Below are positions 3,947 through 47,142 of a stretch of 59,858 nucleotides of DNA, in pieces. Made by a program: the position numbers and the translations under genes. Position 1 is the stretch's first letter, and the number at the start of each line of letters is the position of its first letter. Origin of the DNA: Candidatus Omnitrophota bacterium (lineage in GTDB: Bacteria > Omnitrophota > Gorgyraeia > Zapsychrales > Zapsychraceae); NCBI GenBank assembly GCA_015233495.1, contig JADFXQ010000006.1:1-59858 (forward strand). The letters run 5' to 3'. The notes below the pieces were generated by a model. The model saw only the letters and a list, made by a program, of their open reading frames with translations, was not told the origin of the DNA and did no database searches.

Positions 3947-3968
3947 TCTTTTAAAGGAGGAAAAGGAA

Positions 3969-4193: not shown

Positions 4194-4207
4194 TCAAGGG
4201 AGCCAAC

Positions 4208-6890: not shown

Positions 6891-6918
6891 CGCGCCTTGC
6901 AGACTCTATGATCTGTTC

Positions 6919-6938
6919 ATTCCACGAACAGCGGGAAT
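6919..6938. repeat. REP-like ATTCCC-N8-GGGAAT element, one mismatch
   Basis: attccacgaacagcgggaat in the atpA-atpG spacer; related to the copy at 9463-9486. Confidence 0.6.
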
Positions 6939-7031
6939 CCACTGGCGAAAATACTTTGCCTGTGTGGTTCAGCCTGCTCGTGGTTGCCGGTTACGGATAT
7001 CGCGGCATATTTAATAGGGGACAACGCCTTT

Positions 7032-31257: not shown

Positions 31258-32214
31258 GTGTTAATGCCTTTTTCCGGAAAAAAATCTCCGCTCGTATCCT
31301 ATGACGAAACGCGTCCTTATTTGGGCGCGTATGTGCGGATTCATTTTTATTATGAATCAAAACGGGATATTGAGGCAGTATTGCGGCGATGTTGGGACAA
31401 AGTGGAAGCTGTCCACCGGCACATGAATGTTCATGCGACAACCCTGGAAGGGGATTTGAGCCGTTTGAACGCGGGCGGATTAAGCGGTGTACGCGTTAAT
31501 CCGGATGTTTATCAAATAATTAAAAACTCCCTCGCATATTCCCGTAAAACGCAAGGGGCTTATGATATTACGGTTTTTCCTTTGATTGAACAATGGAAAA
31601 AAGCAGCGGCAAAGGGCAGAATGCCGGATAAAAACGATTTGGAAGCGGCCAAGGAAAAAGTCGGATATCAAAATCTGCGGCTGGAAGCGCCGGACAGGGT
31701 GTTTTTTCAAAAACCCGGGATGAAAATCGATTTAGGATCGCCGGCTTCGGGATTTGTCTGTGATGAGATAGCTAAAATATTAAGCAGTAATAAGATACAA
31801 CATTTTTTGCTTGATGGCGGTGGCGAGATTTTTTGCCGGGGGAAGGATCAGGGAATCAAACCCTGGGTGATCGGGATTCAGGATCCCTTTAATAAAGACA
31901 AATTGCACAGTATTGTTCACTTGCAAGACAAAGGCATTTCTACTTCCGGCAGTTATGAGAAATTTTACCGGATCGGGACAGAGACTTTTTCCCATATTAT
32001 TGATCCGGTCAGCGGATATCCGCAAAAATTTGTGGTGAGCGCGAGTGCGATGGCTCCAACTACAGAAGCTGCGAATCAATTGTCAACTGCGTTTTCTGTA
32101 TTAGGCGCAAGGCAAGCCATGCGGCTGGCTAGCGTTTTAAATGACGTGGAAGCGTTGGTTATCGAAAACCATGAAGGGATCATTACCCAATATCAAACCG
32201 CGGGTTTTCGTTGA
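31258..32214 (+). CDS. apbE: FAD:protein FMN transferase, no clear signal peptide
   Basis: YDITVFPL, DLGS, GGEI, STSGSYE, HIIDP; true start uncertain. Confidence 0.85.
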   Translation: MLMPFSGKKSPLVSYDETRPYLGAYVRIHFYYESKRDIEAVLRRCWDKVEAVHRHMNVHATTLEGDLSRLNAGGLSGVRVNPDVYQIIKNSLAYSRKTQGAYDITVFPLIEQWKKAAAKGRMPDKNDLEAAKEKVGYQNLRLEAPDRVFFQKPGMKIDLGSPASGFVCDEIAKILSSNKIQHFLLDGGGEIFCRGKDQGIKPWVIGIQDPFNKDKLHSIVHLQDKGISTSGSYEKFYRIGTETFSHIIDPVSGYPQKFVVSASAMAPTTEAANQLSTAFSVLGARQAMRLASVLNDVEALVIENHEGIITQYQTAGFR

Positions 32215-32332
32215 TTTTGCGCTATCCGCTTGATTGGCAAGGCGTTTTATGCCTGGCCCAACCAGGATCTCGACGCGTATTGCCTCAACGTTTTCAACAT
32301 TTTTCCTTCGGACATCCTGGGCAAAAAACTTC

Positions 32333-32362
32333 TTGACCTTCTCCTAAACTGTTTGTTACAAT
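32333..32362 (+). promoter_or_regulatory. sigma70 promoter upstream of the magnetosome superoperon
   Basis: TTGACC (32333-32338), 18 nt, extended TG, TACAAT (32357-32362); AT-rich leader follows. Confidence 0.6.
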
Positions 32363-32533
32363 GCGACACTATTTATCATTTATTTATTATCGTATATGTC
32401 CATTTTGTACTGTATATGCCGTCGGTTAAGAGCATTGGAGACATGATTTATTAGTAAGGGGCGGACCTTGCCTGCCTGCCGGCAGCCCCTACACATAATT
32501 TGGATAGCAATAATTTATTATATTCTTTTATTT

Positions 32534-32902
32534 ATGCAAGCTGATTTTTTTACTACATCCCAAGCTGCCAAGTATTTGCATGTGACGCGTTTCACAGTGC
32601 TGAATTGGATCAAGCAAGGAAAATTGCCGGCCGTTTCCACGCTCGGCGGTCACCAGCGGATAGCAAAAGCGTTGGTACTTTCTGCCGCGAAATTCAAACG
32701 GAGCAACGGGTTGAAACTGCCTCCGGCAACGCGGCAGGTTTCGGCAAATCTTTTGGCGCCTGTTCCGGTCAAAAGATCAGCGCCGGTTAGGTCGAAAAAT
32801 AATCCGAATATAGTTGAAGTTTTAAAAAAAGGCGCGTTTTCTTCCGGCAAATATATAGCGGCGATAACGCACAAATTTAATCACAATAATAAAGAAAATT
32901 GA
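32534..32902 (+). CDS. excisionase-like HTH (HTH_17) DNA-binding protein
   Basis: FTTSQAAKYLHVTRFTVLNWIKQGKL..TLGGHQRI; start moved to ATG 32534. Confidence 0.8.
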   Translation: MQADFFTTSQAAKYLHVTRFTVLNWIKQGKLPAVSTLGGHQRIAKALVLSAAKFKRSNGLKLPPATRQVSANLLAPVPVKRSAPVRSKNNPNIVEVLKKGAFSSGKYIAAITHKFNHNNKEN

Positions 32903-32909
32903 ACGCCTA

Positions 32910-34214
32910 ATGGATAAAGTTGAAGTCATTATTGTGGGCGCCGGGCCATCCGGTTTGACTTGCGCTTACACGCTTGCCAAAGCGGGCGTGGAAGTTGTGG
33001 TCATTGAGCGCGGGGAATATCCCGGCGCGAAAAATATGTTTGGCGGGATATTTTTTTCCAGCATCATGTCGAAAATATTCCCGGATTTTTTTGCAGACGC
33101 GCCTTGGGAAAGGTTTGTCGGAAAAAGAAAATTTTCACTGTTGGCCGGCAACAGCGAGATGGCTTTTGACTTTACTCCCAGCGCGTTTAATGAGCCGCCG
33201 TATAATCATTCGTTTATGGCGCGGCGCGGCAGCATGGACCAGTGGCTGGCGAAAAAAGCGGAAGCCGCGGGCGCGAGCATTATCAACAATTATTGCGTGA
33301 GCGATTTTTTGTATGAACACGACAAAGTGGTCGGGATCACCAGCGGCGGCGACCATGATACCTTGCTGGCGGACGTGATTGTCTGCGCGGAAGGCGCGAA
33401 TTCCCTGCTTTCCGAAAAGGCGCGGCTGCGCAAAAAAATCATGGCGGGCCGGCGGTCAATCGCGGTGAAGGAAAATATCCGTTTGCCGCGCGCCGTGATT
33501 GAAGACCGGTTTGGTTTGACCGGACGGCAAGGCGCGGCGTATGAATATTTCGGCGCTTCGGTGCAAGGCCTGTTGGGCAACGGATTTATTTACACGAATC
33601 AGGACAGTTTGTCGGTCGGTGTGGGATTTTCGTTGAGCGATTTCACCAAAACTCAGACAGATAAGAATCCCAACGATATCCTCGATGAATTTAAAAGTCA
33701 TCCGGTGATTGCGCCGTTGTTGCGCGGCGGGGAAACCATGGAATACATGGCGCACATGATCCCGTCGGACGGGTATGATTATCTGCCGAAACTTTATCGG
33801 GACGGGCTGTTGGTTGTCGGAGACGCGGCCGGGCTGTTGAACACGTCATTTTTTCATGAAGGCGTCAATCTGGCCATGGCCTCGGGCATTTTCGCAGCGG
33901 AAACGGTCATCGCGGCGCGGGAGCAAAAGGATTTCAGCGCGGACACCCTGGAGTTTTATGAAGAAAAACTCAAAAAAAGTTTTGTGCTCCAGGACTTGAA
34001 AAATTGCAAAAATTTTCTGTCATTTTTGCACAAACACAAATCGCTCATCAATGATTATCCGGTGTTGTTGAATAATGTTTTGGTCGATTATTTTCAGGTT
34101 TGCGAGAAGCCGAAAATCCAAATCAAAAAAGAAATTTTTCAGCGGGTCAAGAAAAACGTGAAATTCACCCGCGTGGCCTGGGATATGTGGGGAGCGTGGA
34201 GCAATTTGATATGA
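32910..34214 (+). CDS. fixC: FixC-like FAD oxidoreductase
   Basis: GAGPSG, ERGEYPGAKNMFGG, VVGDAAG, EGVNLAMASG. Confidence 0.88.
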   Translation: MDKVEVIIVGAGPSGLTCAYTLAKAGVEVVVIERGEYPGAKNMFGGIFFSSIMSKIFPDFFADAPWERFVGKRKFSLLAGNSEMAFDFTPSAFNEPPYNHSFMARRGSMDQWLAKKAEAAGASIINNYCVSDFLYEHDKVVGITSGGDHDTLLADVIVCAEGANSLLSEKARLRKKIMAGRRSIAVKENIRLPRAVIEDRFGLTGRQGAAYEYFGASVQGLLGNGFIYTNQDSLSVGVGFSLSDFTKTQTDKNPNDILDEFKSHPVIAPLLRGGETMEYMAHMIPSDGYDYLPKLYRDGLLVVGDAAGLLNTSFFHEGVNLAMASGIFAAETVIAAREQKDFSADTLEFYEEKLKKSFVLQDLKNCKNFLSFLHKHKSLINDYPVLLNNVLVDYFQVCEKPKIQIKKEIFQRVKKNVKFTRVAWDMWGAWSNLI

Positions 34215-34525
34215 CAAACAATAAAAAAACAGCGCTGCATTCGCCTGAAAAACAGTTGACGCTGGAAGACAAGCTTTTTTTGGTTAAGACGAAAAAGGAC
34301 ACGGTCAGTCATATCAAAGTTAATTCCAAAATGTGCAAACATTGCGCGTCTAAAATGTGTCTGATTGTGTGTCCGGCCAAAACTTATGAAGAGCGCAAAG
34401 GGGTGATTGAAGCCAATTATGAAAATTGTTTGGAGTGCGGCAGCTGCCGCGTCATTTGCACTGACGGGGCGATTGAATGGGAAAATCCCCGGGGGGGATT
34501 TGGAGTCACGTTTATCAATGGGTAA
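34211..34525 (+). CDS. fixX: FixX-like ferredoxin
   Basis: CKHC..MCLIVCPA and NCLECGSCRVIC, WENPRGGFGV; ATGA overlap with fixC. Confidence 0.88.
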   Translation: MTNNKKTALHSPEKQLTLEDKLFLVKTKKDTVSHIKVNSKMCKHCASKMCLIVCPAKTYEERKGVIEANYENCLECGSCRVICTDGAIEWENPRGGFGVTFING

Positions 34526-34570: not shown

Positions 34571-34741
34571 ATGGCGCATATTATCGGGGGAGCAATCGCT
34601 GCGGTACTGGGAATCTGCGGGATTATCGGCTGGTGGGATAATTTCGGCGATTTTTTAAGAGGCGGCGTGCCGTTGTTTTTGCTTATCGGCGGATTGATCG
34701 CTTTGAATACCGGACTCAAATTGACCCGGGGCAAACAATAA
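34571..34741 (+). CDS. mamI: magnetosome membrane protein MamI (56 aa, absent from the ORF track)
   Basis: Translated by hand: MAHIIGGAIAAVLGICGIIGWWDNFGDFLRGGVPLFLLIGGLIALNTGLKLTRGKQ; two TM helices with WW..F..G.P; AAGGAG RBS. Confidence 0.75.
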   Translation: MAHIIGGAIAAVLGICGIIGWWDNFGDFLRGGVPLFLLIGGLIALNTGLKLTRGKQ

Positions 34742-34994: not shown

Positions 34995-36419
34995 ATGTCT
35001 GACCAAGACGATTCATTTTGCAGTAAACCGCTGGGCCCCTGGATCGCCGGTTTGGTAGTGACGGCAGTGATGTTGGTTTTCTGGGTGGTAATGCGGCGGG
35101 AAGATATTAAGAACGTAATGGACGCGGAAAACGGCACGCCCAACACGGTGAAACCGCCGAATCCGGGCGACCCGAAATTTCCCGGACCGGTTCAGCAGGC
35201 GGCTTTTCCTCAGCCGGCCGCGGTTTCGCGCGTCACATCCAATGGCGGCCCGCAGGCCTACGCGCAAAATAATCGTAATAACGCCAATTACGCGCCGGCG
35301 GCGATAACCAAAGCCACGCCCAACGGAGGTATGCAATTGGTTGCCGGCACGGACAGCAAATTTCAAAACTCTTTAAAAGACGCAGTCAACGCAATCATCC
35401 CGTCGGTGTGCGATATTCATGCCCGCCGGGTGGTAAGTGTGCCGGCGCCGGTCAATACGAATAATCAAGACCCGCGTTTCGCGCCGAATTTTGACGGGAC
35501 GATTGATAAATTCATTGAAAACAAAGGGTATGAAAATATCGGCGCCGGGATCTTTGTCGACGAGCGCGGTTATATATTGACCAATTATCATGTGACCAAA
35601 GACGCGACTGACATTTTCGTGACGATCACGGGAAATCCGACCCGCGACGTGCGCGCTGACATTGTCGCGCAGGAACCGACATTGGATTTGGCGGTGATCA
35701 AGGTGCGCGCGGACGGCCCGTTTCCGGAAGTCAAACTCGGGGATTCGAGTTTTTGCCAGATTGGCGATTATGTCGTAGCGGTGGGCAGTCCGTTCGGCAT
35801 GGAACAGACAGTGACGAGCGGCATTATCAGCGGCATCCGTAAATCCGTCGCGATTCAAGGAGTGCGATACGAAAATTTGTTTCAAACCGACGCGCCGATC
35901 AACCATGGTTCTTCCGGCGGACCGCTGGTGGATTTAAACGGCGATGTCATCGGACTCAATACCGCGATCTACGCGCCGACCGGTGTTTTTAACGGCACCG
36001 GATTCGCCATTCCCATCAATGATTGCAAAGATTTTTTGACGCAGGCGTTGCAGCGTAATTTTCCCGTGCCGGTTAATCGTAAAGGCATGGTCGCGGCAGC
36101 GCTGCCCAAAGTGACGGCCATGGACGCGTCGATTCCGGTGCGGTTCGGCTTGGAAGTCATGCCGGTCAACAGCGTGATTGCCAAGCAGTTTGGCATAACT
36201 CCTGGCCAAGGCGTTTTGGTTAACCGGGTGATGGATGAAAGCGCCGCCAGTTTCGCGGGTATCCAACGCGGCGATGTGGTGACGGCGATTGCCGGCGTGC
36301 CGGTCGCTTCCGGAGAGGATATTAAAAAAATCGTGGCGCATTTTCGAACCGGGGACAGCGTAAATGTCCGTATTTTAAGAAACGGAAAAACTGACGAGAT
36401 TTTAGTGAAACTTCAGTAG
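34995..36419 (+). CDS. mamE: magnetosome HtrA-type serine protease MamE (TM-protease-PDZ)
   Basis: Triad TNYHV, DLAVI, GSSGG; C-terminal PDZ; no CxxCH; mam context. Confidence 0.8.
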   Translation: MSDQDDSFCSKPLGPWIAGLVVTAVMLVFWVVMRREDIKNVMDAENGTPNTVKPPNPGDPKFPGPVQQAAFPQPAAVSRVTSNGGPQAYAQNNRNNANYAPAAITKATPNGGMQLVAGTDSKFQNSLKDAVNAIIPSVCDIHARRVVSVPAPVNTNNQDPRFAPNFDGTIDKFIENKGYENIGAGIFVDERGYILTNYHVTKDATDIFVTITGNPTRDVRADIVAQEPTLDLAVIKVRADGPFPEVKLGDSSFCQIGDYVVAVGSPFGMEQTVTSGIISGIRKSVAIQGVRYENLFQTDAPINHGSSGGPLVDLNGDVIGLNTAIYAPTGVFNGTGFAIPINDCKDFLTQALQRNFPVPVNRKGMVAAALPKVTAMDASIPVRFGLEVMPVNSVIAKQFGITPGQGVLVNRVMDESAASFAGIQRGDVVTAIAGVPVASGEDIKKIVAHFRTGDSVNVRILRNGKTDEILVKLQ

Positions 36420-36438
36420 CAGGAATTGGGTGACACAT

Positions 36439-37053
36439 ATGAAAACAAAAAAAACAACGAACGCCTGGAAAGTGCGGATTCAAAATTTTGTCGGTCGCGA
36501 GCCGGTTTTAGCCGCGGGGATTGTCATTTTCGCGCTGATTACCTTTTTTTGGGTATTGTCTTCCTTGGAATTGATTCCGGAACGGGCACAGCGCGTTACT
36601 GCGCCCAACGGAACGGTCTTTGAACCCGGCGACAGTGTGCAATGGATCGGGATGGATGTGATTCCTCTTACCCGGACAATCCGCAAGGAATTTAAAATTC
36701 CCGGCAAGATCAAAGGGATGTTTGTCCAAAACGAAGGCAAAGATTTGGCGCAAAGGTACGGGGTGAAGACCGGCGATATTTTAGTTTCGATCGGGCGCAA
36801 ATCAGTCGCTACTCAGAAAACTTTTGTTAATGTCGCCAACAATGTGAAATATTCGGACGGGATTTTGCTGGAGATCTTCCGCGACGGAAAAATATTTTAT
36901 TTGACGATTCCTTTTGAATATCAGTACGGGCCGCTTTTGGGCCCGAATAAAGGCAGCTGGCAGTTGGGATCGCCGGTTTTTGGACAGGCGTTTCCTTATG
37001 GGCCGGTGTTCCCGGGAAATAATCCGGGTAATAATCAGCAAAATAGACGATAG
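36439..37053 (+). CDS. TM-PDZ protein resembling MamE C-terminal part (mamE-Cter-like)
   Basis: QWIGMDVIPLT PDZ start, GVKTGDIL, GPNKGSWQL tail. Confidence 0.6.
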   Translation: MKTKKTTNAWKVRIQNFVGREPVLAAGIVIFALITFFWVLSSLELIPERAQRVTAPNGTVFEPGDSVQWIGMDVIPLTRTIRKEFKIPGKIKGMFVQNEGKDLAQRYGVKTGDILVSIGRKSVATQKTFVNVANNVKYSDGILLEIFRDGKIFYLTIPFEYQYGPLLGPNKGSWQLGSPVFGQAFPYGPVFPGNNPGNNQQNRR

Positions 37054-37072
37054 CAATCTTAAAGGGGTTTCT

Positions 37073-38623
37073 ATGATTAAAAAACCGAGTCCTAAGGGCG
37101 CGCTAATCCCGAAGTTGAATTTAAACGAATTTATGTCCCGCGCCAAAGACGCGGACTTGAATTCGTATTTTATTTTCGGCGCGATTATTCTGGTTTTGCT
37201 GGTCGGGATTTACGCGTTATTCGCTCCGGGTGTTGAAAGCCAGAAGGCGGGCAATCCGGCCTGCGGCAAGATCGTTATCGCGGCGGACGGGCCGTCATTA
37301 CGGAATAATGTGGCTCCGACATTGGAAAGCGCGAAATATTTTTTGGTAGTGGACCCGTTATCCGCGAAATTGGATGAGGCAATTCAAAATCCTTACCGTT
37401 CGACGCAGCCGGATTTACAAATTGTTTATCTCATCGCGGGTAAAGGCGAGGAAGCAGTGGTTGTTGGCAATATTGACTCGCAAAGTTATAAAATTTTAAT
37501 GCAATTCGGTATCCGGGTTTTTGGCGGCTATACCGGTCAGGCGAAAAAAGTTATCCGGTTATATAAACAGGCTCGGATCACGCCGACCCCTTTGCAGAAC
37601 GCAACTCCGCCGGCAATGACCGCCCCCGCGGCGATCGGCAGTGTCCCCAACGCGCCAGTCGCGTTTTTTCCGCAAGGTCAGCCGGCTCAGTCGGTGGGAA
37701 GACCCTGTCAGTTTGTTTGCCCGAATTGCCGATATAGCGCCGCTGGCCAGGATTTTGGCGGACCCTGTCCGCTTTGCCCGAATTGCCGGGGACAGATGAC
37801 GCGGCAAAACGCGGGGCAAGGCGCGGGCTGGGGTGTTCCGGATGTGAATGGAATGGGACAAATTTATCCGAATGGCAACCCTATGCTGCCGGGCGGCATG
37901 AACGCGGGATGGGGCGCAATGAATATGATGAACGGCCCGTGTCCTTTACCGGGACGCGGCGGATGGATGCAAGGCGCGATGATCCAGAACTTGCCGGACG
38001 CGGATACAATGCGCAAATCCAATCCCGGGACTCAAGTCGGATTTTTTGGCTGGGGACAGCAAGCGTTTGTCTGCCCCAATTGCAATTGGCGGATGAAAGC
38101 TTCCCGGCAGGGAAACAGTTTTCCGGATTGTCCGAATTGCGGCGCGCCGATGGCTTTGGATATGGCGGATAAGAATAAAGCCGGGGCGCCATGGGGAGGG
38201 GAACAGGCGGCGAATTTGAATCAAATGCCGCCGCAATATAATTCGGCGATGAACTCGTCGAATTATGCCGCGGCTCAGAACGGAGCAGGGATTTTCCAAT
38301 GCCCGAATTGCAATTGGCGGATGTACGGCCAATCCGGTCAAGGCGCATATCCGCGCTGCCCTAATTGCGGACAAATCATGGCGCAAGGCGGGGGCAACAA
38401 CCAGCCGAATTATTATAATCAAGGGAATGTTGCGATGGCGCCGGCAGCGGCCCAAATGCCGATCGCGGCGCCGGCTATAGCCAGCAACGCGGTGATGACG
38501 CATGAATACCGCGGCGTGTGTTCCAATTGTCATCAGATCATCGGGCCGACAGCCAACAGTCAAAATATGCAGCCGCCAGCAGGGAATTCCCTGCGCGTGG
38601 GAATTGGACGGCGAGCCAGATAA
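37073..38623 (+). CDS. TM + NifB/NifX-like domain + three CxxC..CxxC ribbons + magnetochrome heme domain (516 aa)
   Basis: IVIAADG..AKYFLVVD..VVVGNI..GIRVF NifX-like; six CPNC motifs; HEYRGVCSNCH at 38519-38533; start moved to ATG 37073. Confidence 0.8.
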   Translation: MIKKPSPKGALIPKLNLNEFMSRAKDADLNSYFIFGAIILVLLVGIYALFAPGVESQKAGNPACGKIVIAADGPSLRNNVAPTLESAKYFLVVDPLSAKLDEAIQNPYRSTQPDLQIVYLIAGKGEEAVVVGNIDSQSYKILMQFGIRVFGGYTGQAKKVIRLYKQARITPTPLQNATPPAMTAPAAIGSVPNAPVAFFPQGQPAQSVGRPCQFVCPNCRYSAAGQDFGGPCPLCPNCRGQMTRQNAGQGAGWGVPDVNGMGQIYPNGNPMLPGGMNAGWGAMNMMNGPCPLPGRGGWMQGAMIQNLPDADTMRKSNPGTQVGFFGWGQQAFVCPNCNWRMKASRQGNSFPDCPNCGAPMALDMADKNKAGAPWGGEQAANLNQMPPQYNSAMNSSNYAAAQNGAGIFQCPNCNWRMYGQSGQGAYPRCPNCGQIMAQGGGNNQPNYYNQGNVAMAPAAAQMPIAAPAIASNAVMTHEYRGVCSNCHQIIGPTANSQNMQPPAGNSLRVGIGRRAR

Positions 38624-38932: not shown

Positions 38933-40105
38933 GTGGCTGACAAACTTATCAAATATCGCAAACAAAGCCGGCAGAAATTTTTTCTGGTTTTGGCAGTGTT
39001 TTTTCTCGGGCTGCTTTTTGTGGCGGCCTTGATGCACATCGGGGCGGGAGACGCGGAATGGGGCGGGATGTCGGTGAGCAATGTTTCTGCGGCCAACGCG
39101 ATGGAATTCAATATTCCGAAAGACGAAAAAGGCGTAGTGGTCAACTGGTGCGAGGACCCTGCTTATTCTTCGGGTGTGCGCAGCGGCGATCTTTTGAAAG
39201 CCGTCAACAATCAGAAGATTAAAAATTTAGCGGACTTTTTAAAAGTGACCAAGCAAACCGAGTTAAGTCAAGGCGCGTTGTTGGACGTTTTGCGCAATGG
39301 CCAGCCGATTTACATCACCATGGAAAATAAATTGGGTCTGCATGACAGTATCAAGAAGAGTTTGAACATGGATATGGGCGTGACAGGAAAAAACCCGGCT
39401 GCCGCTCCACCGGCTGCAGCCAAAAGCGGCTCCACCGCGGGCGGACCGGGACAGTTAGCCGCGTTCGCTAACCGATCGCCGGCGGAAACCGCGGAAGCCG
39501 GAGTGGGACAGCCGGCGCCAGCGCCGTTGAATACGCAATTGCCAACCCCAAAACAACAGGGAGCGGCGAAAAAAGATTTGATTGAAGGTCATTGGTTGGG
39601 CATGGAGTTGATCCCGCTCACTCCGGAATTAGCGACTGAATATAAAGTCCCGCCGGATACAAAAGGTTTGTTGGTTGATGAGATTTGTTTGGAATCCGCG
39701 GAATCGGGTATTTTGGCGGGTGACATGGTAGTGGGCGTGGATGGGGTGGCGACTCCGGATTTGGTCGCTTTTACGGAAGCGACGCGCCGGGTCAAAAACC
39801 GCGACAGCGCTAAGATCACGGTTTCCCGGCGGGGGCGTATTCTGGATTTTAAGATTTCTTCTGAACGCACTTTGGGGTTTTCGCAGAATGAAGCGGCTCA
39901 GCCGATCGCGCCGGGCGCGATCAGCCCGCATCGCAGCCGCAATAAACCGTGCACCTCTTGTCATATAATTATGGTGACGGGCGGACAACTGCCGACGGAC
40001 GCGGGAGATATTTTACCGAACCCGCCTCCGATCACCAAGGGCGCGGTGGCGCCGCACGAATATCGCGGCAAATGCAAGAACTGTCACGTGATATTAAAAA
40101 AATGA
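38933..40105 (+). CDS. mamP: magnetosome protein MamP (TM, two PDZ, two magnetochromes)
   Basis: EGHWLGMELIP; PH..KPCTSCH and PHEYRGKCKNCH. Confidence 0.88.
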   Translation: MADKLIKYRKQSRQKFFLVLAVFFLGLLFVAALMHIGAGDAEWGGMSVSNVSAANAMEFNIPKDEKGVVVNWCEDPAYSSGVRSGDLLKAVNNQKIKNLADFLKVTKQTELSQGALLDVLRNGQPIYITMENKLGLHDSIKKSLNMDMGVTGKNPAAAPPAAAKSGSTAGGPGQLAAFANRSPAETAEAGVGQPAPAPLNTQLPTPKQQGAAKKDLIEGHWLGMELIPLTPELATEYKVPPDTKGLLVDEICLESAESGILAGDMVVGVDGVATPDLVAFTEATRRVKNRDSAKITVSRRGRILDFKISSERTLGFSQNEAAQPIAPGAISPHRSRNKPCTSCHIIMVTGGQLPTDAGDILPNPPPITKGAVAPHEYRGKCKNCHVILKK

Positions 40106-40126: not shown

Positions 40127-40582
40127 ATGAGTCTATTAGATTATATGCCGGTTTGTCTCAGGCTTAAAGGCGCGGAATGTTTGATTGTGGGCGGCGGCAA
40201 TGTGGCTTGGAGGAAGATTAAGGTATTAAAAAAATTCGGCGCGGCTTTGACCTGTATCAGTCCGGAATTTGTGGCCCCGCTCGAAAAATGGGGCAGAGAG
40301 GGCAAAGTCTGTTGTCAGTATAGGCGGTATCCCCAAAATTTGTCTTTGAAAAAGTATCAGCTGGTCTTCGCGGCTACGGATGACCCAGCTGTGAACCGGC
40401 GGGTCGCGGCAGACGCGGCCCGGGCTAAGATCTTAGTAAATGTGGCAGACCAAAGCGCGCCGGGAACGATGATTATGCCGGCGATTTTAAAACGAAAATA
40501 TTTCCTGATCAGCGTATCCACCGGCGGCCGCAGTCCGGCGTTGGCCAAGCAATTAAGGGACAAGTTGGATGCCGTCTTATAA
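40127..40582 (+). CDS. precorrin-2 dehydrogenase/sirohydrochlorin ferrochelatase (SirC/CysG-N-like), short
   Basis: VGGGNVAWRK, AATDD, NVAD, STGGRSPALA; 151 aa. Confidence 0.85.
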   Translation: MSLLDYMPVCLRLKGAECLIVGGGNVAWRKIKVLKKFGAALTCISPEFVAPLEKWGREGKVCCQYRRYPQNLSLKKYQLVFAATDDPAVNRRVAADAARAKILVNVADQSAPGTMIMPAILKRKYFLISVSTGGRSPALAKQLRDKLDAVL

Positions 40583-41366
40583 CATTATTTTTTTTTACGC
40601 GGGCTGTATTTTTTACGCGATCGGCACGGCGTTGGGAATCGCTTATTTTTCGCGTTCGCAGCCGCGGTTCTTTGATTATGCCAGACAGTGGATCGCGGTC
40701 GGCGCGGTCGCAGGGTTGTTTTTTCTGATTACGCGGTATCGAGATCAAGGGTATTTGCCATTGGTTTCGCTGTTTGAAATTACTTTTTTCTGGGCGTGGT
40801 TGTTGAGCATTGTCGTTTGTCTTTTGCTTAAGGCGGCAATGGCCAAGCCTATCCAGGCAGTCGCTTTGCTGATTTTTGACAGCGTGTTTATCTGGGATTT
40901 GTTTTTAGATAAGCAAAGCCATCTTTTGAATCCTTTATTGAACAGCCCGTGGCTCGGCATTCATGTTCCGGCGGTTATTTTAAGTTATAGCGCTTTTGCT
41001 TTGTCGTTCGCGATCAGCGTTTATCTGGTGATCGGGAAAAAATTCGGCCGGGCCAACGGCGGGTTAGACGCGTTGAACGCGGGATTGATTTTATTCGGCG
41101 TCGTGTTTTTGGGATTTGGGATTGTGACCGGGTCGATCTGGGCGCATACCGCGTGGGGAACTTATTGGAGCTGGGACCCGAAAGAAACTTGGGCGTTGAT
41201 TACGTTTTTGATTTATGGGACAGCAGTGGTGGCGCGCCGGGTATTCCGGATGGAACCGTTTTGGCAGGCGATGACTTCCATCGCGGGTTTTTTGTCAATG
41301 CTGATTACGTTTTTTGGCGTGAGTCTTTTCATGGTCAGTCATCATGCGTATAATGTTGTTAAATAA
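40569..41366 (+). CDS. ccsA: cytochrome c assembly protein, CcsA/HemX-like
   Basis: WWD motif WGTYWSWDPKE; His in WLGIHVP and the C-terminal SHHAY. Confidence 0.8.
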   Translation: MPSYNIIFFYAGCIFYAIGTALGIAYFSRSQPRFFDYARQWIAVGAVAGLFFLITRYRDQGYLPLVSLFEITFFWAWLLSIVVCLLLKAAMAKPIQAVALLIFDSVFIWDLFLDKQSHLLNPLLNSPWLGIHVPAVILSYSAFALSFAISVYLVIGKKFGRANGGLDALNAGLILFGVVFLGFGIVTGSIWAHTAWGTYWSWDPKETWALITFLIYGTAVVARRVFRMEPFWQAMTSIAGFLSMLITFFGVSLFMVSHHAYNVVK

Positions 41367-41417
41367 TGGGTTCTTTCACATTTTACACGTTTAAAATATT
41401 GTTTAAGAGGAATAGAA

Positions 41418-42500
41418 ATGACTTTAGTCGTCCTAGGGATAAATCATAAGACAGCGCCGCTGGATATTCGGGAGCGGTACAGTTTTCCGGACAACGCCTT
41501 GGAGGGGTATTATCGCGGGTTATTAGCGGGCGGCCCAATCCGTGAAGCTATGATTTTGTCAACCTGCAACCGGGTGGAAATTTACGGCGTGGGAGAGGAC
41601 GCGGTTCAAGTCGTTGACCGGTTGGTAGAATTTTTAAATGATATTCAATTAATCGCCCCGGAATTTTTGCGGCAATATTTTTATCGGAAAACCGGAGAAG
41701 CGGCGCTAGGTCATTTTTTCCGCGTGGCCAGCGGGTTGGATTCGATGTTAATCGGCGAGCCGCAGATTCTGGGCCAGATTAAACGGGCGTATGAAAAGGC
41801 TTTGGCTGCGGGCGCGGTTGGTTCGGGGTTGCACGCGGTGATTCAGGATGGCCTGCGGATCGGCAAGAAAGTCCGAAATCATACCGGCATTACCCGCGGG
41901 GTAACTTCCTTATCCGGGGTGGTAATCGATTTGATCAAGCGCGAACCCGGGCTGAATCAGAAAAAGATTTTGGTCATCGGCGCGGGAAAGATCGGCGCCA
42001 CTACCGTCGGGAAATTAGCGGAAATGGCGGTTCAAGAAATAGTTTTGACAAACCGGGATATTGCCCGGGCGGCGCAATTGGCGCGTCAACCCAATTGGCG
42101 GGTGGCGGAATTTGTTGATCTGCCGCGGGAAGTCGCGGCCGCGGATATAGTGGTTGCGGCCACCACTGCGCCGCATTTGATCAACCGCTCGATGCTGGAA
42201 TACATTTGTCAAGGTCGGCAAAAGGAACTGCTGCTGATCGATTTGGGCGTGCCGCGCAACATTGACGCCGCCGCGCGGGCCATGTCGGGTGTGCGGCTTT
42301 ATAACATTGACGATTTGGCTCCGGTGATTGAACAAACTATCCGCGACCGGGCGGTGGAAGCGCGTAAAGCACAAGCGATTGTCAGCCGGGAGATCTTGGC
42401 CGCTCGACGGCAAACAAGCAACCCGGCGCGAGGCGCGGCCGGTATTGCCGCGGCGCCAGCAGGGGAAAAATTTTTATGCGAACTCTCGTTTTCGGGATAA
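41418..42500 (+). CDS. hemA: glutamyl-tRNA reductase, C-terminally short
   Basis: STCNRVEIY, GEPQILGQ, GAGKIG, DLGVPRNID. Confidence 0.93.
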   Translation: MTLVVLGINHKTAPLDIRERYSFPDNALEGYYRGLLAGGPIREAMILSTCNRVEIYGVGEDAVQVVDRLVEFLNDIQLIAPEFLRQYFYRKTGEAALGHFFRVASGLDSMLIGEPQILGQIKRAYEKALAAGAVGSGLHAVIQDGLRIGKKVRNHTGITRGVTSLSGVVIDLIKREPGLNQKKILVIGAGKIGATTVGKLAEMAVQEIVLTNRDIARAAQLARQPNWRVAEFVDLPREVAAADIVVAATTAPHLINRSMLEYICQGRQKELLLIDLGVPRNIDAAARAMSGVRLYNIDDLAPVIEQTIRDRAVEARKAQAIVSREILAARRQTSNPARGAAGIAAAPAGEKFLCELSFSG

Positions 42501-43351
42501 GAAAAAGCGCTTTGGCGCGGGTACAGCTCGAAGAGTTCATCGCTTTTTTGGCGCAGCAAAATTTTATTTTTGACTACTGCGTGAAAACGATTGCCACCGC
42601 CGGGGACCAGGACAAAAAGACTCCGCTGGATAAAATGGGCCGGGGGATTTTTACGAAGACGATCGAAGCCGCGCTTTTGCGCGGAGAAATCGATTGCGCG
42701 GTCCACAGTTTGAAAGATATGCCGGCGGAACTTGAACCCGGAACGGCTTTGTCTTGTTTCCCGCCGCGGCAAGACAGCCGCGATTGTTTGGTTGTCCGGC
42801 CGGGAGTGGCGCCGGAGCATTTGGCGGGATTACGGATCGGCACAGGCAGTCCGCGGCGCGCCGCTTTTTTAAAAGAGCTGGAAAGTACCGCGCAAGCTTT
42901 GCCAGTCCGCGGAAACGTTGAAACGCGGCTGCGCAAGTTGGACAAAGGCGATTATGATGGTTTGATTTTGGCGGCTGCCGGGTTAAAACGTCTCGGTTAC
43001 GCGGGACGCGTTGCTCGGTATTTTGATCCGGAAATTTTTGTTCCACCGGCCGGGCAAGGGATTATTTGCGGCCAAACCCGCGGCAGGGACATTGAATTGA
43101 ACCAAGCGTTACGCGCGTGTTCTTGCGCCGCGACCGGAAAAGCGGCCCAGGCGGAACGGAAAATTTTAACGGTTTTAAACATCGGCTGCCAAGTGCCTTT
43201 TGGGGTGTATGCCCGGTTTGACGCAGAACAATTTTGCATAACCGCCCGGGGATTTACGGCGGCAAAACAGGCCTTGGTGAGCAAAAAGCAAGTTGTCCCG
43301 GCGGCGCAGTGGGAAGCGGCGGTAGATAAATTGATAAACGCTTTAAAGTGA
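42476..43351 (+). CDS. hemC: hydroxymethylbilane synthase
   Basis: RKSALA, AVHSLKDMP, GTGSPRR, RGNVETRL. Confidence 0.95.
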   Translation: MRTLVFGIRKSALARVQLEEFIAFLAQQNFIFDYCVKTIATAGDQDKKTPLDKMGRGIFTKTIEAALLRGEIDCAVHSLKDMPAELEPGTALSCFPPRQDSRDCLVVRPGVAPEHLAGLRIGTGSPRRAAFLKELESTAQALPVRGNVETRLRKLDKGDYDGLILAAAGLKRLGYAGRVARYFDPEIFVPPAGQGIICGQTRGRDIELNQALRACSCAATGKAAQAERKILTVLNIGCQVPFGVYARFDAEQFCITARGFTAAKQALVSKKQVVPAAQWEAAVDKLINALK

Positions 43352-43473
43352 ATGACCAATGACAAAATTCAAAATTCAAAAATCCAAACATACAGCTTGG
43401 AATTTTTTGTTTTACGCCAGGGATTTTAAAATTTGAATTTATTTTGAATTTGGCGATTTATCATTCGAATTTT
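43351..43473. repeat. 7-bp-period AT-rich hairpin element
   Basis: aatgacc aatgaca aaattca aaattca aaaatcc arm and complementary tttgaattt..ttttgaattt arm at 43432-43451. Confidence 0.65.
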
Positions 43474-43479
43474 ATAAAA

Positions 43480-44988
43480 ATGTTAAAGGCGCAGAAACCA
43501 GCGAAAGTGTATTTGGTCGGCGCGGGTCCGGGGGATCCGGGCCTGATGACAGTTAAGGCTTTGGAATGCGTTAAGCAAGCGGACGTGATTCTTTATGACC
43601 GGCTGATCAGTCCGGAGATTTTAAAGCAGGGCAAAGCCGGCGCGGTTTTAAAATATGTAGGCAAAGCCAAGGGCGAATCGGTTGATCAGGCAAAGATCAA
43701 CCAAACAATTTTATCCTATGCCCGCGCCGGAAAAACCGTTGTCCGATTAAAAGGCGGCGATCCGTTTATTTTTGGCCGGGGACAGGAAGAGGCGTTCTTT
43801 CTCAATAATCAGGGTATTGCCTGCGCCGTGATTCCGGGCGTGAGTTCTTTTTACGCCGTGCCGGAGGTTTGCGGGATTCCGCTTACCTATCGGGGCATCG
43901 CGAGTCAATTTATGGTGTTGACCGGGCATGAAGACCCGGCAAAGCAAACCCCAGGCATTGACTGGCGGCACGCCGGACGGTTTCAGGGGACGATTGTTGT
44001 AATGATGGGGTTGTCGAATCTCGGTAAAATTACCAGCCGGCTGATGGCGGCCGGCAAAAGCGGCGATACCCCGGCTGCGGTAATCGCCAGCGGCACCACG
44101 CGCCGGGAAAAAATCGTGATATCCCGACTATCGGATATCGCGGCCAAGACTAAAAATTTTACCGCGCCGGCGATTTGCGTGATCGGCGGGGTTGTAAAAA
44201 TGGCTTATGGGATCAATGACCGGCTCAGGCCTTTGGCCGGCAAACGGTATTTGTCGACAGCGAGCGAAGCGTTGGGCGCGGATATTGTGCGCCAATTAAA
44301 ACGGTTGGGCGCGGCCGTGAGTTTACTGCCGATGATTCATATCGTCGCGAATCCGGATACTGCGGTCTTGGACCGGATCATCACGCAGGTAAAAACTTTT
44401 GATTGGCTGGTGTTTACGTCGCGGCACGGGGTGGATTATTTTCTAAAGCGTTATTTTGAGTTGGGCGCGAATCCGGCGCATTTAGCCGGACGCATTGCCT
44501 GTGTGGGTTGCGGCACTGCCGCGGAATTCGCGAAACACGGGATGGCCGCGGATCTGATGCCCGAAGAATTTACGACGCGAAATCTGGGTTTGGCGCTCGC
44601 AGCTCAAGGGATAGCCGGCAAACGGGTGGCTTTGTTACGCACGCCTTTAGCGCAGGATGTTTTAAAGAAAATTTTGCTTAAAGCCGGAGCGGTTATAACG
44701 GATTGCGCGGTTTATCACGTGGAAAATGTCGGGTATTCCGGGCCGCGGTTGGCCCCAGCTGTAAAAAAACTCGACGGAATATTTTTCTTGAGTCCGCAAG
44801 CTGTGCGGGTGTTTTTTGCGACGGTTCCGCCCGAGAGCCAAGCAGCGCTGAAACAAAAAGCGGCGTTTTATTCTATTGGCCCGGTGACTACCCGGATGTT
44901 GAAAAAAATAGGGGCCCGCGATATTCGTGCCGCGGCAGAGCACACGGTAAACGGCATGGTTGATCGGTGTTTAAAGGACATTGTCTGA
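43480..44988 (+). CDS. cobA-hemD: uroporphyrinogen-III C-methyltransferase / synthase fusion (CobA-HemD)
   Basis: GAGPGDP, RLKGGDPFIFGRG; HemD half DWLVFTSRHGV, SIGPVT. Confidence 0.93.
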   Translation: MLKAQKPAKVYLVGAGPGDPGLMTVKALECVKQADVILYDRLISPEILKQGKAGAVLKYVGKAKGESVDQAKINQTILSYARAGKTVVRLKGGDPFIFGRGQEEAFFLNNQGIACAVIPGVSSFYAVPEVCGIPLTYRGIASQFMVLTGHEDPAKQTPGIDWRHAGRFQGTIVVMMGLSNLGKITSRLMAAGKSGDTPAAVIASGTTRREKIVISRLSDIAAKTKNFTAPAICVIGGVVKMAYGINDRLRPLAGKRYLSTASEALGADIVRQLKRLGAAVSLLPMIHIVANPDTAVLDRIITQVKTFDWLVFTSRHGVDYFLKRYFELGANPAHLAGRIACVGCGTAAEFAKHGMAADLMPEEFTTRNLGLALAAQGIAGKRVALLRTPLAQDVLKKILLKAGAVITDCAVYHVENVGYSGPRLAPAVKKLDGIFFLSPQAVRVFFATVPPESQAALKQKAAFYSIGPVTTRMLKKIGARDIRAAAEHTVNGMVDRCLKDIV

Positions 44989-46139
44989 TGATTTCTTGCT
45001 CGAAAATATTCAAAGGCGAACGCACGGAACACACTCAGCGTAAAAAGGGACCGCTGTTCGTCTGGAATGTCACCAGTCGCTGCAATTTGCAGTGCGGTCA
45101 TTGTTATCGGGATGCTTCTTCGGGAAACGGCGCCGATGATTTGACCGACCAAAATTGCCTGAATTTTATCCGCGAGATTAAGGAGCTCAACCCGCCGATC
45201 GTGCTGTTGACCGGCGGCGAGCCGCTGTTGCGCGGAAATATTTTTGACATTATCCGGGTTTGCCGGGATGAAGGTTTATCCGTAGGATTGTCCACCAACG
45301 GCACGCTGATCAATCCGGACATGGCGAAAAAAATTCAGGACGCGGGAGTGAGTTATGTCGGGATCAGCATTGACGGGAATAAGGAAGCGCATGACCGGTT
45401 CCGCCGCGCCGACGGGTCATGGGAAGCCAGTTGGCAAGGGATTGAATCTTTAAACAAGCACGGCGTGAAAACCGGAGTGCGGTTTACCTTGACTGCGGCT
45501 AACCGTCACGATCTTAATGCGGTTTTAGCCAAGACCGTGATCAGCGGCACGAAACGATTCTGCTTGTATCATTTGGTTTACGCCGGCCGCGCCGCGGCTG
45601 AACAGGACATGACGGTGGAAGAAAAACGGCTGTGCATGGAAGGGTTTTTTAAAAAAATCCGGGAAATTTTAGCGGTCGATCCGGAGTTTGATGTTTTGAC
45701 CACAGACAGTCCGGCGGACGGCGTGTTTATGCTCGGCATGGTCAACAATAAAAAAGACGCTTTGGCGTGTATTACCTCGCATAAGGGATGTTCAGCGGGC
45801 GACCGGGTCGTTTATATCGATTCCAACGGCGATGTTTTTCCCTGCCAGTTTTTACGGGAATATCCGCTGGGGAATATTTTAGAAGAACCGCTCATTGAAA
45901 TTTGGCAAAATACGCGCAACGATTTATTGTTGCAGTTGCGCGATAAACAAAGTTACGTCGAAGGCAAATGCGGGATTTGCCGGCATAAACATATTTGCGG
46001 CGGATGCCGGGCTAGGGCCCAAGCGTATCATGGTTCTTTATGGGCGGAAGACCCGGGATGCTATTTGACCGAAGGGGAAGTGACTCCGCAATTTTTGCGT
46101 CGGCCCAGGAAAACTGAGAAGCAGGTTGTCGGAGTATAG
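44988..46139 (+). CDS. ahbC: radical SAM/SPASM Fe-coproporphyrin synthase
   Basis: WNVTSRCNLQCGHC, SPASM Cys, CGGCRARA; TGATG overlap. Confidence 0.8.
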   Translation: MISCSKIFKGERTEHTQRKKGPLFVWNVTSRCNLQCGHCYRDASSGNGADDLTDQNCLNFIREIKELNPPIVLLTGGEPLLRGNIFDIIRVCRDEGLSVGLSTNGTLINPDMAKKIQDAGVSYVGISIDGNKEAHDRFRRADGSWEASWQGIESLNKHGVKTGVRFTLTAANRHDLNAVLAKTVISGTKRFCLYHLVYAGRAAAEQDMTVEEKRLCMEGFFKKIREILAVDPEFDVLTTDSPADGVFMLGMVNNKKDALACITSHKGCSAGDRVVYIDSNGDVFPCQFLREYPLGNILEEPLIEIWQNTRNDLLLQLRDKQSYVEGKCGICRHKHICGGCRARAQAYHGSLWAEDPGCYLTEGEVTPQFLRRPRKTEKQVVGV

Positions 46140-46155
46140 AATTAAGGTGATGGAT

Positions 46156-47142
46156 ATGATTTTTGAAAATTCGCGACTCGCCAGATTAAGACAAAGCTCG
46201 AATATAAGGGATTTGGTTCGCGAAACCCGGCTGCATAAAAGCGATTTGATCATGCCTCTGTTTTTTAAAGAGGGGAAAGGGACACAATCGGTCCCTGCTT
46301 TGCCTGGCGTAGCCAAAATGTCCCGGGAGGTTTTATTAAGGGAAGCGGAGGCCTTGCAAAAGTTGGGGATCAAGGCGGTGTTGTTGTTTGGCTCGGCTTC
46401 GGCCAAAGACGCGGTTGGCTCATCCAGCTATGCCGCAGACGGCCCGTTTCAACAAACGATCCGGGCGATTAAAAAAGCGAGCGATATTGTTCTGATCACG
46501 GATGTGTGTTTGTGCGCGTATACCACGCATGGTCATTGCGGAATTGTCGCTCACTCTGGGGCAAAAAATAGGACGCCGTTTAGGTTGGATTCCGGCCGGA
46601 CCTTGGCGGCCTTAGCGAAGATCGCGGTTTCTCACGCTCAGGCTGGCGCGGATATTGTGGCGCCTTCCGCTATGGCGGACGGTCAGGTCGCGGCCATCCG
46701 TCAGGCATTGGACAAGGCGGGTTTGGACACGACCGCGATTTTGAGTTACGCGGTAAAATATGCTTCGAGTTTTTATGGGCCGTTTCGGGATATCTACGAT
46801 TCGTCTCCGGCCCAAGGCGATCGGCGTGGTTATCAAATGGATCCGGCCAATGGACGGGAAGCATTAGCGGAAGCGGCTTTGGATGTGGCCCAAGGCGCGG
46901 ATATGGTCATGGTCAAACCCGCTTTGGCGTATTTGGATATAATTCAAGCTGTTCGGGCAGCTGTCTATGTTCCGGTTGCGGCTTATAATGTGAGCGGCGA
47001 ATACGCAATGGTCAAGGCGGCGCATGCTCAAGGTTGGCTGGATGAAAAGTCCGCGGCCTGGGAGATTTTGAATTCCATCAAACGGGCTGGCGCGGATTTG
47101 ATCATAACGTATTGGGCGAAAGAGGCGGCGCAATGGATTTGA
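46156..47142 (+). CDS. hemB: porphobilinogen synthase, Zn-type
   Basis: DVCLCAYTTHGHC, SAMADG, MVMVKPA; start uncertain (46150 or 46156). Confidence 0.95.
   Translation: MIFENSRLARLRQSSNIRDLVRETRLHKSDLIMPLFFKEGKGTQSVPALPGVAKMSREVLLREAEALQKLGIKAVLLFGSASAKDAVGSSSYAADGPFQQTIRAIKKASDIVLITDVCLCAYTTHGHCGIVAHSGAKNRTPFRLDSGRTLAALAKIAVSHAQAGADIVAPSAMADGQVAAIRQALDKAGLDTTAILSYAVKYASSFYGPFRDIYDSSPAQGDRRGYQMDPANGREALAEAALDVAQGADMVMVKPALAYLDIIQAVRAAVYVPVAAYNVSGEYAMVKAAHAQGWLDEKSAAWEILNSIKRAGADLIITYWAKEAAQWI

Follow-up and report, generated by a model that had tools for sequence, protein, structure and literature searches.

A membrane-anchored NifX-like protein with Cys4 ribbons and a magnetochrome in an Omnitrophota magnetosome gene cluster

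What task might fall to a protein that carries a NifX-like domain, three four-cysteine (Cys4) ribbons and a c-type heme site on a single membrane-anchored chain? Such a protein is encoded at positions 37073-38623, on the forward strand, of the stretch of DNA analyzed here (the window: 59,858 nucleotides (nt) of contig JADFXQ010000006.1, assembly GCA_015233495.1, from a Candidatus Omnitrophota bacterium). What is known of magnetosome formation comes nearly all from Alphaproteobacteria and, lately, from Desulfovibrio magneticus RS-1, rather than from deep-branching phyla. The gene holds a fixed position in every Omnitrophota-type magnetosome cluster examined, and its product bears three putative kinds of metal site on one chain. 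The product most likely acts on the lumenal side as an accessory to the MamE/MamP module, in iron or redox handling, and by analogy with FmpA/FmpB mutants it would have a role in biomineralization.

The gene and its parts lie in the window as follows (aa, amino acids).

37061-37067, + strand: likely ribosome-binding site, purine-rich AAAGGGG, 5 nt 5' of the ATG at 37073 (direct sequence reading)
37073-38623, + strand: whole gene, 516 aa plus stop; membrane anchor, NifX-like domain, three Cys4 ribbons, magnetochrome
37073-37162, + strand: N-terminal tail, aa 1-30, net charge +3, predicted cytoplasmic
37163-37228, + strand: single transmembrane helix, aa 31-52 (hydropathy, family alignment, AlphaFold model)
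37244-37588, + strand: NifX/NafY/MTH1175-like (Nitro_FeMo-Co) domain, aa 58-172, with K124-G-E-E-A128 invariant
37250-37267, + strand: GNPACG motif, aa 60-65; Cys64 directly precedes strand 1 of the domain (family alignment)
37706-37786, + strand: ribbon 1, aa 212-238, six cysteines, C-x3-CPNC-x12-C-x2-CPNC
37931-37954, + strand: lone-cysteine motif NGPCPLPG, Cys290, in linker 2
38072-38140, + strand: ribbon 2, aa 334-356, CPNCNWRMK type, CPNC-x15-CPNC
38300-38368, + strand: ribbon 3, aa 410-432, CPNCNWRMY type, CPNC-x15-CPNC
38471-38545, + strand: magnetochrome (c-type heme site), aa 467-491, H477-EYRGV-C483-SN-C486-H487
38585-38620, + strand: conserved extreme C-terminal tail, NSLRVGIGRRAR-COOH, with variants ending in C[VI][IL][RK]-COOH

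Architecture and topology of the protein

The coding span runs from the ATG at 37073 to the stop codon at 38621-38623. A longer alternative reading from TTG 36914, which would overlap the upstream PDZ gene, finds no support among the homologues and was set aside because all of them align from M1. An earlier interpretation made from the DNA letters and their translations (the sequence-only reading) had named a transmembrane helix, a NifX-like domain, ribbons, linkers and a magnetochrome, and every one of these modules proved real. In a per-domain search with hidden Markov models (HMMs) from Pfam, the magnetochrome family (MCR) scored above its cut-off and Nitro_FeMo-Co slightly below its own, with weak zinc-ribbon matches at aa 330-362 and 405-436.

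Residues 31-52 form the only strongly hydrophobic stretch of the protein (Kyte-Doolittle 19-residue maximum 2.8, versus at most 1.3 over the rest), and the helix is strongly conserved in the family: F33, I34 and A48 are invariant, as are D28 and N30 just before it. A topology check combining this one N-terminal helix with the +3 charge of the preceding tail gives an anchor with its N-terminus in the cytoplasm (N-in). A second membrane helix, with the ribbons on the cytoplasmic side, is ruled out by the hydropathy scan, in which nothing exceeds 1.3 past residue 52. The protein is a Sec-type, N-in membrane anchor with every module extracytoplasmic; the residues beyond 52 lie on the side where heme c is attached, that is, in the periplasm or the magnetosome lumen, as the lumenal placement proposed from the sequence had it. 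There is no twin-arginine motif in the protein, so the chain would cross the membrane unfolded and its cofactors would be acquired outside the cytoplasm, a route that suits heme c and mononuclear Cys4 sites able to assemble by themselves.

Conservation across the family is highest in the N-terminal helix and the NifX-like domain. Within the GNPACG motif N61-P-A-C-G65 is invariant and G60 nearly so. Cys64 was considered as a lipoprotein processing site and rejected, since N-P-A-C does not qualify as a lipobox by the established pattern. A phmmer search of PDB sequences recovered MTH1175 at 3e-6, along with TM1290 and Orange protein. An AlphaFold model of the full protein, for which 40 sequences were aligned, has high confidence over aa 62-170 (predicted local distance difference test score, pLDDT, of 75-96 in the NifX-like domain), and Foldseek matched it against the PDB with probability 1.00 each to TM1816 (TM-score relative to the target, TMt, 0.82), ORP (0.78), NafY (0.68), NifX (9ian_F, in the NifEN complex; 0.61) and PH0822. 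Model and phmmer thus agree on the alpha/beta fold of the family, with the Pfam score just sub-threshold. Among 40 family members, 37 match both PF02579 (Nitro_FeMo-Co) and PF18509 (MCR) at E ≤ 0.001, and some homologues already bear a precomputed PF02579 annotation. The NifX, NafY, MTH1175 and ORP proteins are carriers of FeMo-co precursors or of a Mo-Cu-S cluster; the extracytoplasmic location of the present domain disfavors a nitrogenase cofactor as its ligand.

The terminal HEYRGVCSNCH was rightly read as a magnetochrome. PF18509 reaches 33.4 bits at aa 467-491, over its cut-off of 30.4, and 38.9 bits when the whole genome is scanned; H477 and H487 are the only histidines of the protein and are the two expected axial ligands, and the CxxCH is intact. 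The sequence follows the motif PHxxRGxCxxCH except for a Thr in place of the Pro ahead of H477, and on this pattern the site is predicted to hold heme.

A fixed place in the magnetosome cluster

The immediate neighbors of the gene lie on the same strand, and the gaps around the gene measure 7-22 bp.

34571-34741, + strand: MamI, 56 aa, 73% identical to a Pfam-annotated MamI
34995-36419, + strand: MamE-like HtrA protease with PDZ
36430-37053, + strand: membrane-anchored PDZ protein, 207 aa
38645-38926, + strand: 93-aa protein, CxxC / two-helix hairpin / CxxC, syntenic
38933-40105, + strand: MamP-like protein, two PDZ and two magnetochromes
40569-41366, + strand: Cytochrom_C_asm (CcsA-type, heme-handling) gene in the heme-synthesis cassette

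The heme cassette, 3' of the MamP-like gene, is followed by MamM, MamB, MamA, MamQ, a PDZ-MamN fusion and a MamO-like protein. The same order (MamI, a small gene, MamE, PDZ, this gene, one or two small genes, MamP) recurs in three other contigs, in which the gene encodes four (L001), three (L003) or no ribbons (L002). We surveyed 401 evenly sampled Omnitrophota genomes and found the family in five, in each of them with tandem MamM/MamB genes 5-15 kb away on the same contig. Because the claim concerns co-location, the limits of the marker matter: over the 401 genomes the MamB model did not discriminate (ordinary cation diffusion facilitator transporters scored nearly as high, and none passed the cut-off), and MamM/MamB were used as markers only where a tandem pair was co-located with a family match. 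A further 123 of the 401 genomes hold only small NifX-like proteins, presumably cytoplasmic, with 22-35% identity, and the genome studied here has no paralogue of its own. The gene thus sits between the MamE/PDZ genes and mamP and, among the genomes sampled, only where the cluster is present; it belongs to the core of the Omnitrophota magnetosome cluster and is inherited together with it.

Other Omnitrophota clusters carry the small CxxC hairpin protein in the corresponding place (its L002 counterpart is 68% identical), and two such genes are present in some of them.

The cluster also provides for heme. The genome (2.1 Mb, 91% complete) has its sole tetrapyrrole pathway genes (sirC, hemA, hemC, cobA/hemD, ahbC, hemB, ahbD and hemL) within the magnetosome cluster, at 40127-50359, where they make up a complete heme cassette of the siroheme route; no second copies of hemA, hemB, hemC, cobA/hemD, sirC or the CcsA-type gene were found in the genome, and the single CcsA-type gene likewise lies in the cluster. 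Genome-wide there are exactly three MCR matches, two in MamP and one here. A six-frame scan of open reading frames (ORFs) found at least two CxxCH motifs in MamP alone, and those ORFs of at least 130 aa with a single CxxCH that were read, by eye rather than by HMM, resemble UvrA, DnaJ, a radical S-adenosylmethionine enzyme, a permease or a flavodoxin-like protein, or are spurious frames. The heme cassette of the cluster appears to serve three heme-c sites, the two of MamP and the one described here. The location of the site, the cluster-encoded CcsA-type gene and the heme pathway are consistent with an extracytoplasmic, covalently bound heme.

Ribbons, linkers, tail and family variation

Three CPNC modules had been proposed at 37718-38368. 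Their number and location stand (CPNC-x15-CPNC-xxxM at aa 216-238, 334-356 and 410-432), and the spacing is 15 in all three rather than 13-16; ribbon 1 has additional cysteines at 212 and 232. Modules 2 and 3 do share sequence: the 18-mer AATTGCAATTGGCGGATG is present exactly twice, at 38078 and 38306, with 0 expected. The two modules are only 50% identical to each other, at the protein and DNA levels alike, whereas module 2 is 82-88% and module 3 is 68-76% identical to positional orthologues in other genomes. This rules out a recent duplication. The duplication is old and predates the spread of the family, because the modules resemble their positional orthologues more than each other; the shared 18-mer is best read as a by-product of the conserved peptide CPNCNWRM.

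Across 119 modules the family-wide consensus is F-x-CPxC-x-W ... P-x-CPNC-G-x-x-M, in which C-P-x-C ... C-P-x-C is invariant, and positional subtypes can be told apart (a six-Cys first module, a CNWRxK type and a CNWRMY type). The ribbons are among the best-conserved sequences of the protein. In the full AlphaFold model they form paired beta-hairpins (two knuckles) with pLDDT of about 70-93, and isolated ribbon 2, modeled with 22 module sequences, reaches a pLDDT of 85.5 with strands flanking the knuckles; both models place the two CxxC knuckles on beta-hairpins. The isolated ribbon matches, weakly, the Zn modules of Shiftless, Sir2, MCM, HypA and aIF2-gamma and, equally weakly, the Fe(Cys)4 centers of desulfoferrodoxin, desulforedoxin, rubrerythrin and rubredoxin B. 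All Pfam matches over the ribbons of family members are to zinc-ribbon families.

The linkers between the modules are rich in Gly, Asn, Gln, Met, Pro and Ala and nearly uncharged; in linker 2 the commonest residues are Gly, Asn, Pro, Met and Gln, Met making up 9 of its 86 residues, and Ala and Asn lead in linkers 3 and 4. The composition bears out the Gly/Asn/Gln/Met-rich linkers described in the sequence-only reading. Met-rich tethers are apparently common to NifX-ribbon magnetosome proteins: an Omnitrophota paralogue of 590 aa without a magnetochrome (P0069) has extreme Met/Asn-rich linkers (MQNMAMQPMNM...), and giant proteins of magnetotactic Desulfamplus (e.g., P0079) have long AGMPT repeat tracts. 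The lone-Cys motif, (M)N-x-P-x-C-P-[LIMV]-P, occurs in one to three copies in 26 of 61 family members, ribbon-free ones included, and resembles Cys-Pro heme-regulatory motifs.

The extreme C-terminus takes the form ...G-G-x-C-[VI]-[IL]-[RK]-COOH or ...R-V-G-I-G-x-x-x-[RK]-COOH, with a terminal R or K after hydrophobic residues in 67 of 80 proteins. It is retained in magnetochrome-free members and in a wider clade of relatives, and may be a docking peptide for adjacent PDZ domains or a sorting signal.

About 60 sequence clusters of the family were found in all. A word-indexed search gave 50 of them besides that of the present protein, with nearly all of the named ones from Omnitrophica/Omnitrophota assemblies, and a profile search of 1.84 billion representatives found additional members. 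Homologues are currently annotated as ‘magnetochrome domain-containing protein’, as ‘NifB/NifX family...’ or as hypothetical. Every full-length member has the NifX-like domain, while ribbon counts span 0-6 and magnetochrome counts 0-2. In ribbon-free orthologues (P0037-P0039, P0050) the ribbon region is replaced by N-P-L-W-E-R-A-A and G-N-I-T-W-E-L-A-A repeats in sequence rich in Gln and Ala. Two of the five family-bearing genomes also encode a shorter anchored NifX paralogue (~240 aa) near extra MamB-like genes, on a separate contig in one (G327:C16:12419-13024) and on the main-cluster contig in the other (G368:C21:6934-7560); these loci might mark a second magnetosome cluster.

The wider clade (P0067, P0187, P0207) has the anchor, the NifX-like domain, two ribbons of other subtypes, one magnetochrome and a similar C-terminal tail, and the P0187 gene is flanked by a PDZ gene and a MamP-like gene. 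In a further magnetosome cluster (L004) the protein is split in two: a NifX protein of 175 aa (3793-4320) is encoded between MamI and MamE, and the three ribbons and the magnetochrome make up a protein of 290 aa (6473-7345) encoded between the PDZ gene and MamP. That the halves occur fused or split within one cluster type supports the view that they work together.

For phylogenetic placement we used a maximum-likelihood tree of 123 NifX domains, the deep nodes of which are weak or unresolved. The domains of the family form one clade (support 100/99), which joins other anchored N-terminal NifX forms and the split L004 gene (80/82 to 93/86), apart from the FmpB-type clades, from those of the giants and from the small generic proteins of non-magnetotactic Omnitrophota. 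The family profile also recovers FmpB-type proteins, which start with two to five magnetochromes and end in one or two NifX domains, with a middle region that in FmpB is a PDZ (PMC4287615); among them are one annotated MamP in Ca. Desulfarcum epimagneticum and one in a Desulfobulbaceae assembly. It further reaches the Desulfamplus giants, ‘PDZ domain-containing proteins’ of 900-1500 aa with PDZ, up to three NifX domains and CPxCG ribbons, and no magnetochrome. In hhalign the Omnitrophota ribbons align with those of the giants and of the wider clade (35 columns, probability 96%, E 1e-9), a score that short Cys-rich profiles can inflate.

Proposed role and competing explanations

Proteins that pair a magnetochrome with a NifX domain have been described before. 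In D. magneticus RS-1, FmpB (DMR_41100) has a magnetochrome, PDZ and NifX, and FmpA has PDZ and NifX (PMC4287615); both are enriched on early magnetosomes (PMC4287615, PMC12748827). Where mutations in fmpA or fmpB are predicted to delete the NifX domains, crystals are fewer, smaller or misshapen (PMC4287615, PMC12748827), and fmpB mutants make fewer and smaller ones (PMC4287615, PMC12748827). FmpB (earlier MamT, MamP-like) and the FmpB-like ‘MamP’ of magnetotactic Desulfobacterota (e.g., VEN74104.1 of Ca. Desulfarcum epimagneticum) share with the Omnitrophota protein a magnetosome cluster, an extracytoplasmic location, a magnetochrome and a NifX-like domain. A signal peptide is reported for FmpB, and FmpB-like proteins carry two to five magnetochromes at the N-terminal end, then PDZ, then one or two NifX domains at the C-terminal end, whereas the Omnitrophota protein has an N-terminal anchor followed by NifX, three Cys4 ribbons and one C-terminal magnetochrome, with no PDZ. 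Neither this architecture nor the NifX tree, within the limits of its weak deep nodes, places the protein in one orthologous group with FmpB.

FmpA, the MamE-Cter proteins and the Desulfamplus giants (MBF0240870.1, 1262 aa) are also membrane-anchored magnetosome-cluster proteins with NifX-like domains. The giants have CPxCG-type Cys-rich ribbons, the profiles of which align with those of the Omnitrophota protein (hhalign, 96%), and Met-rich low-complexity linkers as well; they differ in having PDZ, three NifX domains and ribbons with an invariant His and extra cysteines, and in lacking a magnetochrome. MamP, MamT and MamX of Magnetospirillum share with it the magnetochrome motif PHxxRGxCxxCH and probably a role in magnetosome iron redox chemistry, and a passage in PMC11648623 states that MamP oxidizes Fe(II). 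Unlike these proteins, the present one has a single heme site rather than a pair, and no PDZ; the NCBIfam models for MamT (NF040992, 22.6 bits against 200) and MamP (NF040965, 20.9 against 300) match its magnetochrome only, both below cut-off. The NifX, NafY, MTH1175 and ORP proteins (PF02579) have the same alpha/beta fold (target TM-scores of 0.6-0.8) and are cytoplasmic and soluble, often in nif or Mo contexts. In contrast, the present domain is membrane-tethered and extracytoplasmic, belongs to a cluster without nif genes and has invariant C64, K124, E126 and E127. Rubredoxin, desulforedoxin, the rubrerythrin C-terminal domain and zinc ribbons likewise have two CxxC knuckles on beta-hairpins, with a CPxCG knuckle as in rubredoxin; unlike these, the Omnitrophota ribbons are extracytoplasmic, stand in tandem on disordered linkers and have no significant sequence or fold match. 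The rubrerythrin Cys4 site has a spacing of x12, to which the x15 found here is close.

The protein had been put forward as a novel biomineralization candidate. The claim holds for its architecture and clade, which are distinct, and fails insofar as magnetosome proteins with magnetochrome and NifX were already known and FmpB and FmpA are genetically characterized. The protein is a relative in kind of FmpA and FmpB, rearranged, with reversed domain order and added ribbons. A literature search, in which figure labels in cluster diagrams are not searchable, found no description of the Omnitrophota protein. New here are the genome-wide count of heme-c sites together with the single heme pathway, the split-gene form, the ribbon alignment with the Desulfamplus giants, the conserved C-terminal tail and the recurrent lone-Cys CP[LIMV]P motif.

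Taken whole, the explanation that we favor, and to which we give about an even chance, is an anchored lumenal protein that binds heme c and handles iron or redox equivalents with MamE, the PDZ protein and MamP. One N-terminal helix would insert the protein in the magnetosome membrane, with the N-terminus in the cytoplasm and the domains facing the lumen or periplasm, where one heme c would be attached to the C-terminal magnetochrome. The membrane-proximal NifX-like domain may hold an inorganic iron species formed outside the cytoplasm, such as polynuclear Fe-O or Fe-S, and would carry no nitrogenase cofactor. The bis-His heme could exchange electrons with the two hemes of MamP. The Cys4 ribbons, strung on disordered tethers and differing in number by lineage, would act as metal beads that assemble unaided, and might cycle between Fe(II) and Fe(III) as the rubrerythrin Cys4 site does, or simply be Zn-stabilized binding modules. 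Together with the MamE protease, the PDZ protein and MamP, the protein would act on iron and its redox state during crystal formation.

A number of observations weigh against this explanation or parts of it. Unfolded export speaks against an Fe-S or Mo cluster of cytoplasmic origin in the NifX-like domain, which itself scores 24.7 bits with PF02579 (aa 78-165) against a gathering cut-off of 26.3 and does not group with FmpB-type domains; given its separate clade, function can be transferred from FmpB by analogy only. There are orthologues with no ribbons, at the same cluster position, and others with no magnetochrome, so neither module is essential to the core role of the family. The single heme pathway with its three sites is the strongest indirect argument that this heme site is used; its caveat is that a ResB partner for the CcsA-type gene was not found in the genome (91% complete). 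The linkers are predicted to be disordered (pLDDT < 50), which makes a rigid or fixed electron wire unlikely; flexible, bead-like relay or buffering, or Zn-stabilized binding modules, fit better. As for the ribbons, the search with the isolated fold gave no match at E ≤ 0.001 to Zn or Fe sites alike, and Rubredoxin (PF00301) had no match at E ≤ 1 in this protein and none at E ≤ 0.001 in 40 members. The Cys4 knuckle fold is generic, and Zn and Fe cannot be told apart from it. A Zn-bound or structural state has, in our judgment, a little less than an even chance, and redox-active iron is a real but lesser possibility. Ribbon disulfides, which the two DSBA-family genes of the genome (C36:12539-12970, C74:6818-7264) would allow, are improbable, as is any other state; the genome was scanned for DSBA and DsbB, and no DsbB was found. 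Of the iron chaperone or electron wire originally proposed, the magnetosome-cluster setting is supported; the function itself is conjectural, the rigid wire is unlikely and the ribbon fold is ambiguous as to metal.

A rival reading takes one domain set to be divided differently between genes. The protein might be the Omnitrophota counterpart of FmpB and the MamE C-terminal proteins, with PDZ supplied by the 207-aa gene and the ribbons as mere decoration: FmpB combines magnetochrome, PDZ and NifX and FmpA PDZ and NifX, the family profile recovers the FmpB-like ‘MamP’ of magnetotactic Desulfobacterota, L004 demonstrates fission or fusion of the parts, and ribbon-free orthologues exist. We consider this doubtful. 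The NifX domains form their own clade (100/99) with anchored N-terminal forms and not with the FmpB or giant types (deep branches being weak), the cluster has in addition a distinct MamP-like gene encoding two PDZ and two magnetochromes, and the high conservation of the ribbons is unexpected for neutral decoration. Rather unlikely, in our view, is a non-redox scaffold or adaptor in the lumen, in which the ribbons are Zn-stabilized protein-binding beads, the linkers a flexible matrix or tether and the heme an accessory, and the C-terminal tail docks on a PDZ of MamE, the PDZ protein or MamP and so organizes or regulates the protease/MamP module. It draws on the low-complexity linkers with pLDDT below 50, on ribbon numbers that vary from 0 to 6 like beads on a string, on ribbon fold matches whose best include Zn modules (Shiftless, Sir2, MCM, HypA) and Pfam matches that are all zinc-ribbon, on a conserved tail (terminal R or K in 67 of 80 proteins) that persists without a magnetochrome, on the three PDZ proteins encoded adjacent and on the unusually high conservation of the membrane helix. 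A basic last residue, however, is no classical PDZ ligand, 37 of 40 members retain the heme site with its ligands, a whole heme pathway in the cluster appears to serve only this protein and MamP, and the invariant NifX-like domain is left unexplained.

Highly improbable is a lumenal thiol-disulfide relay in which the CPxC pairs are redox-active dithiols that keep the magnetochrome CxxCH reduced for heme attachment. CPxC does resemble the active sites of thiol-disulfide oxidoreductases, neither ResB nor DsbB was found in the genome, and the gene lies between the protease and MamP, near the CcsA-type gene. Against this, the four cysteines are predicted in beta-hairpin knuckles typical of a metal site and not in a thioredoxin fold, Pfam gives no thioredoxin-family match in this protein or the 40 members, and ribbon-free orthologues still have a magnetochrome and stand beside MamP.

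Beyond the favored iron/redox accessory lies a broader conjecture, a long shot in our estimation, in which magnetosome clusters of deep-branching magnetotactic bacteria would share a module that has gone unnoticed, an exported, membrane-tethered NifX-like domain; several such forms turn up, in the Omnitrophota family and its wider clade, in the FmpB type and in the Desulfamplus giants. Cys64, Lys124, Glu126 and Glu127 would on this conjecture re-tool the fold for a polynuclear iron-oxo or iron-sulfur mineral precursor, iron-loaded ribbons would be the first lumenal rubredoxin-type relays, passing electrons via the heme to or from MamP, the tail would plug into the adjacent PDZ domain, and ribbon number would tune electron or iron capacity. 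An extracytoplasmic iron cluster in the NifX-like domain, or redox-active iron in the ribbons, would offer a new handle on the chemistry of mineral precursors and would also explain the few crystals in fmpA and fmpB mutants lacking NifX domains. If the ribbons are merely Zn-stabilized, this would be an ordinary lineage-specific accessory protein.

Upstream of the genes considered so far, the region 5' of mamI (31258-34525) encodes ApbE (a flavin transferase), an HTH_17 gene and FixC/FixX-like oxidoreductases. The corresponding position holds ApbE, HTH_17 and FixC/FixX in L001, HTH_17 and FixC/FixX in L003, and ApbE and HTH_17 in L002, which hints at a cluster-encoded electron input.

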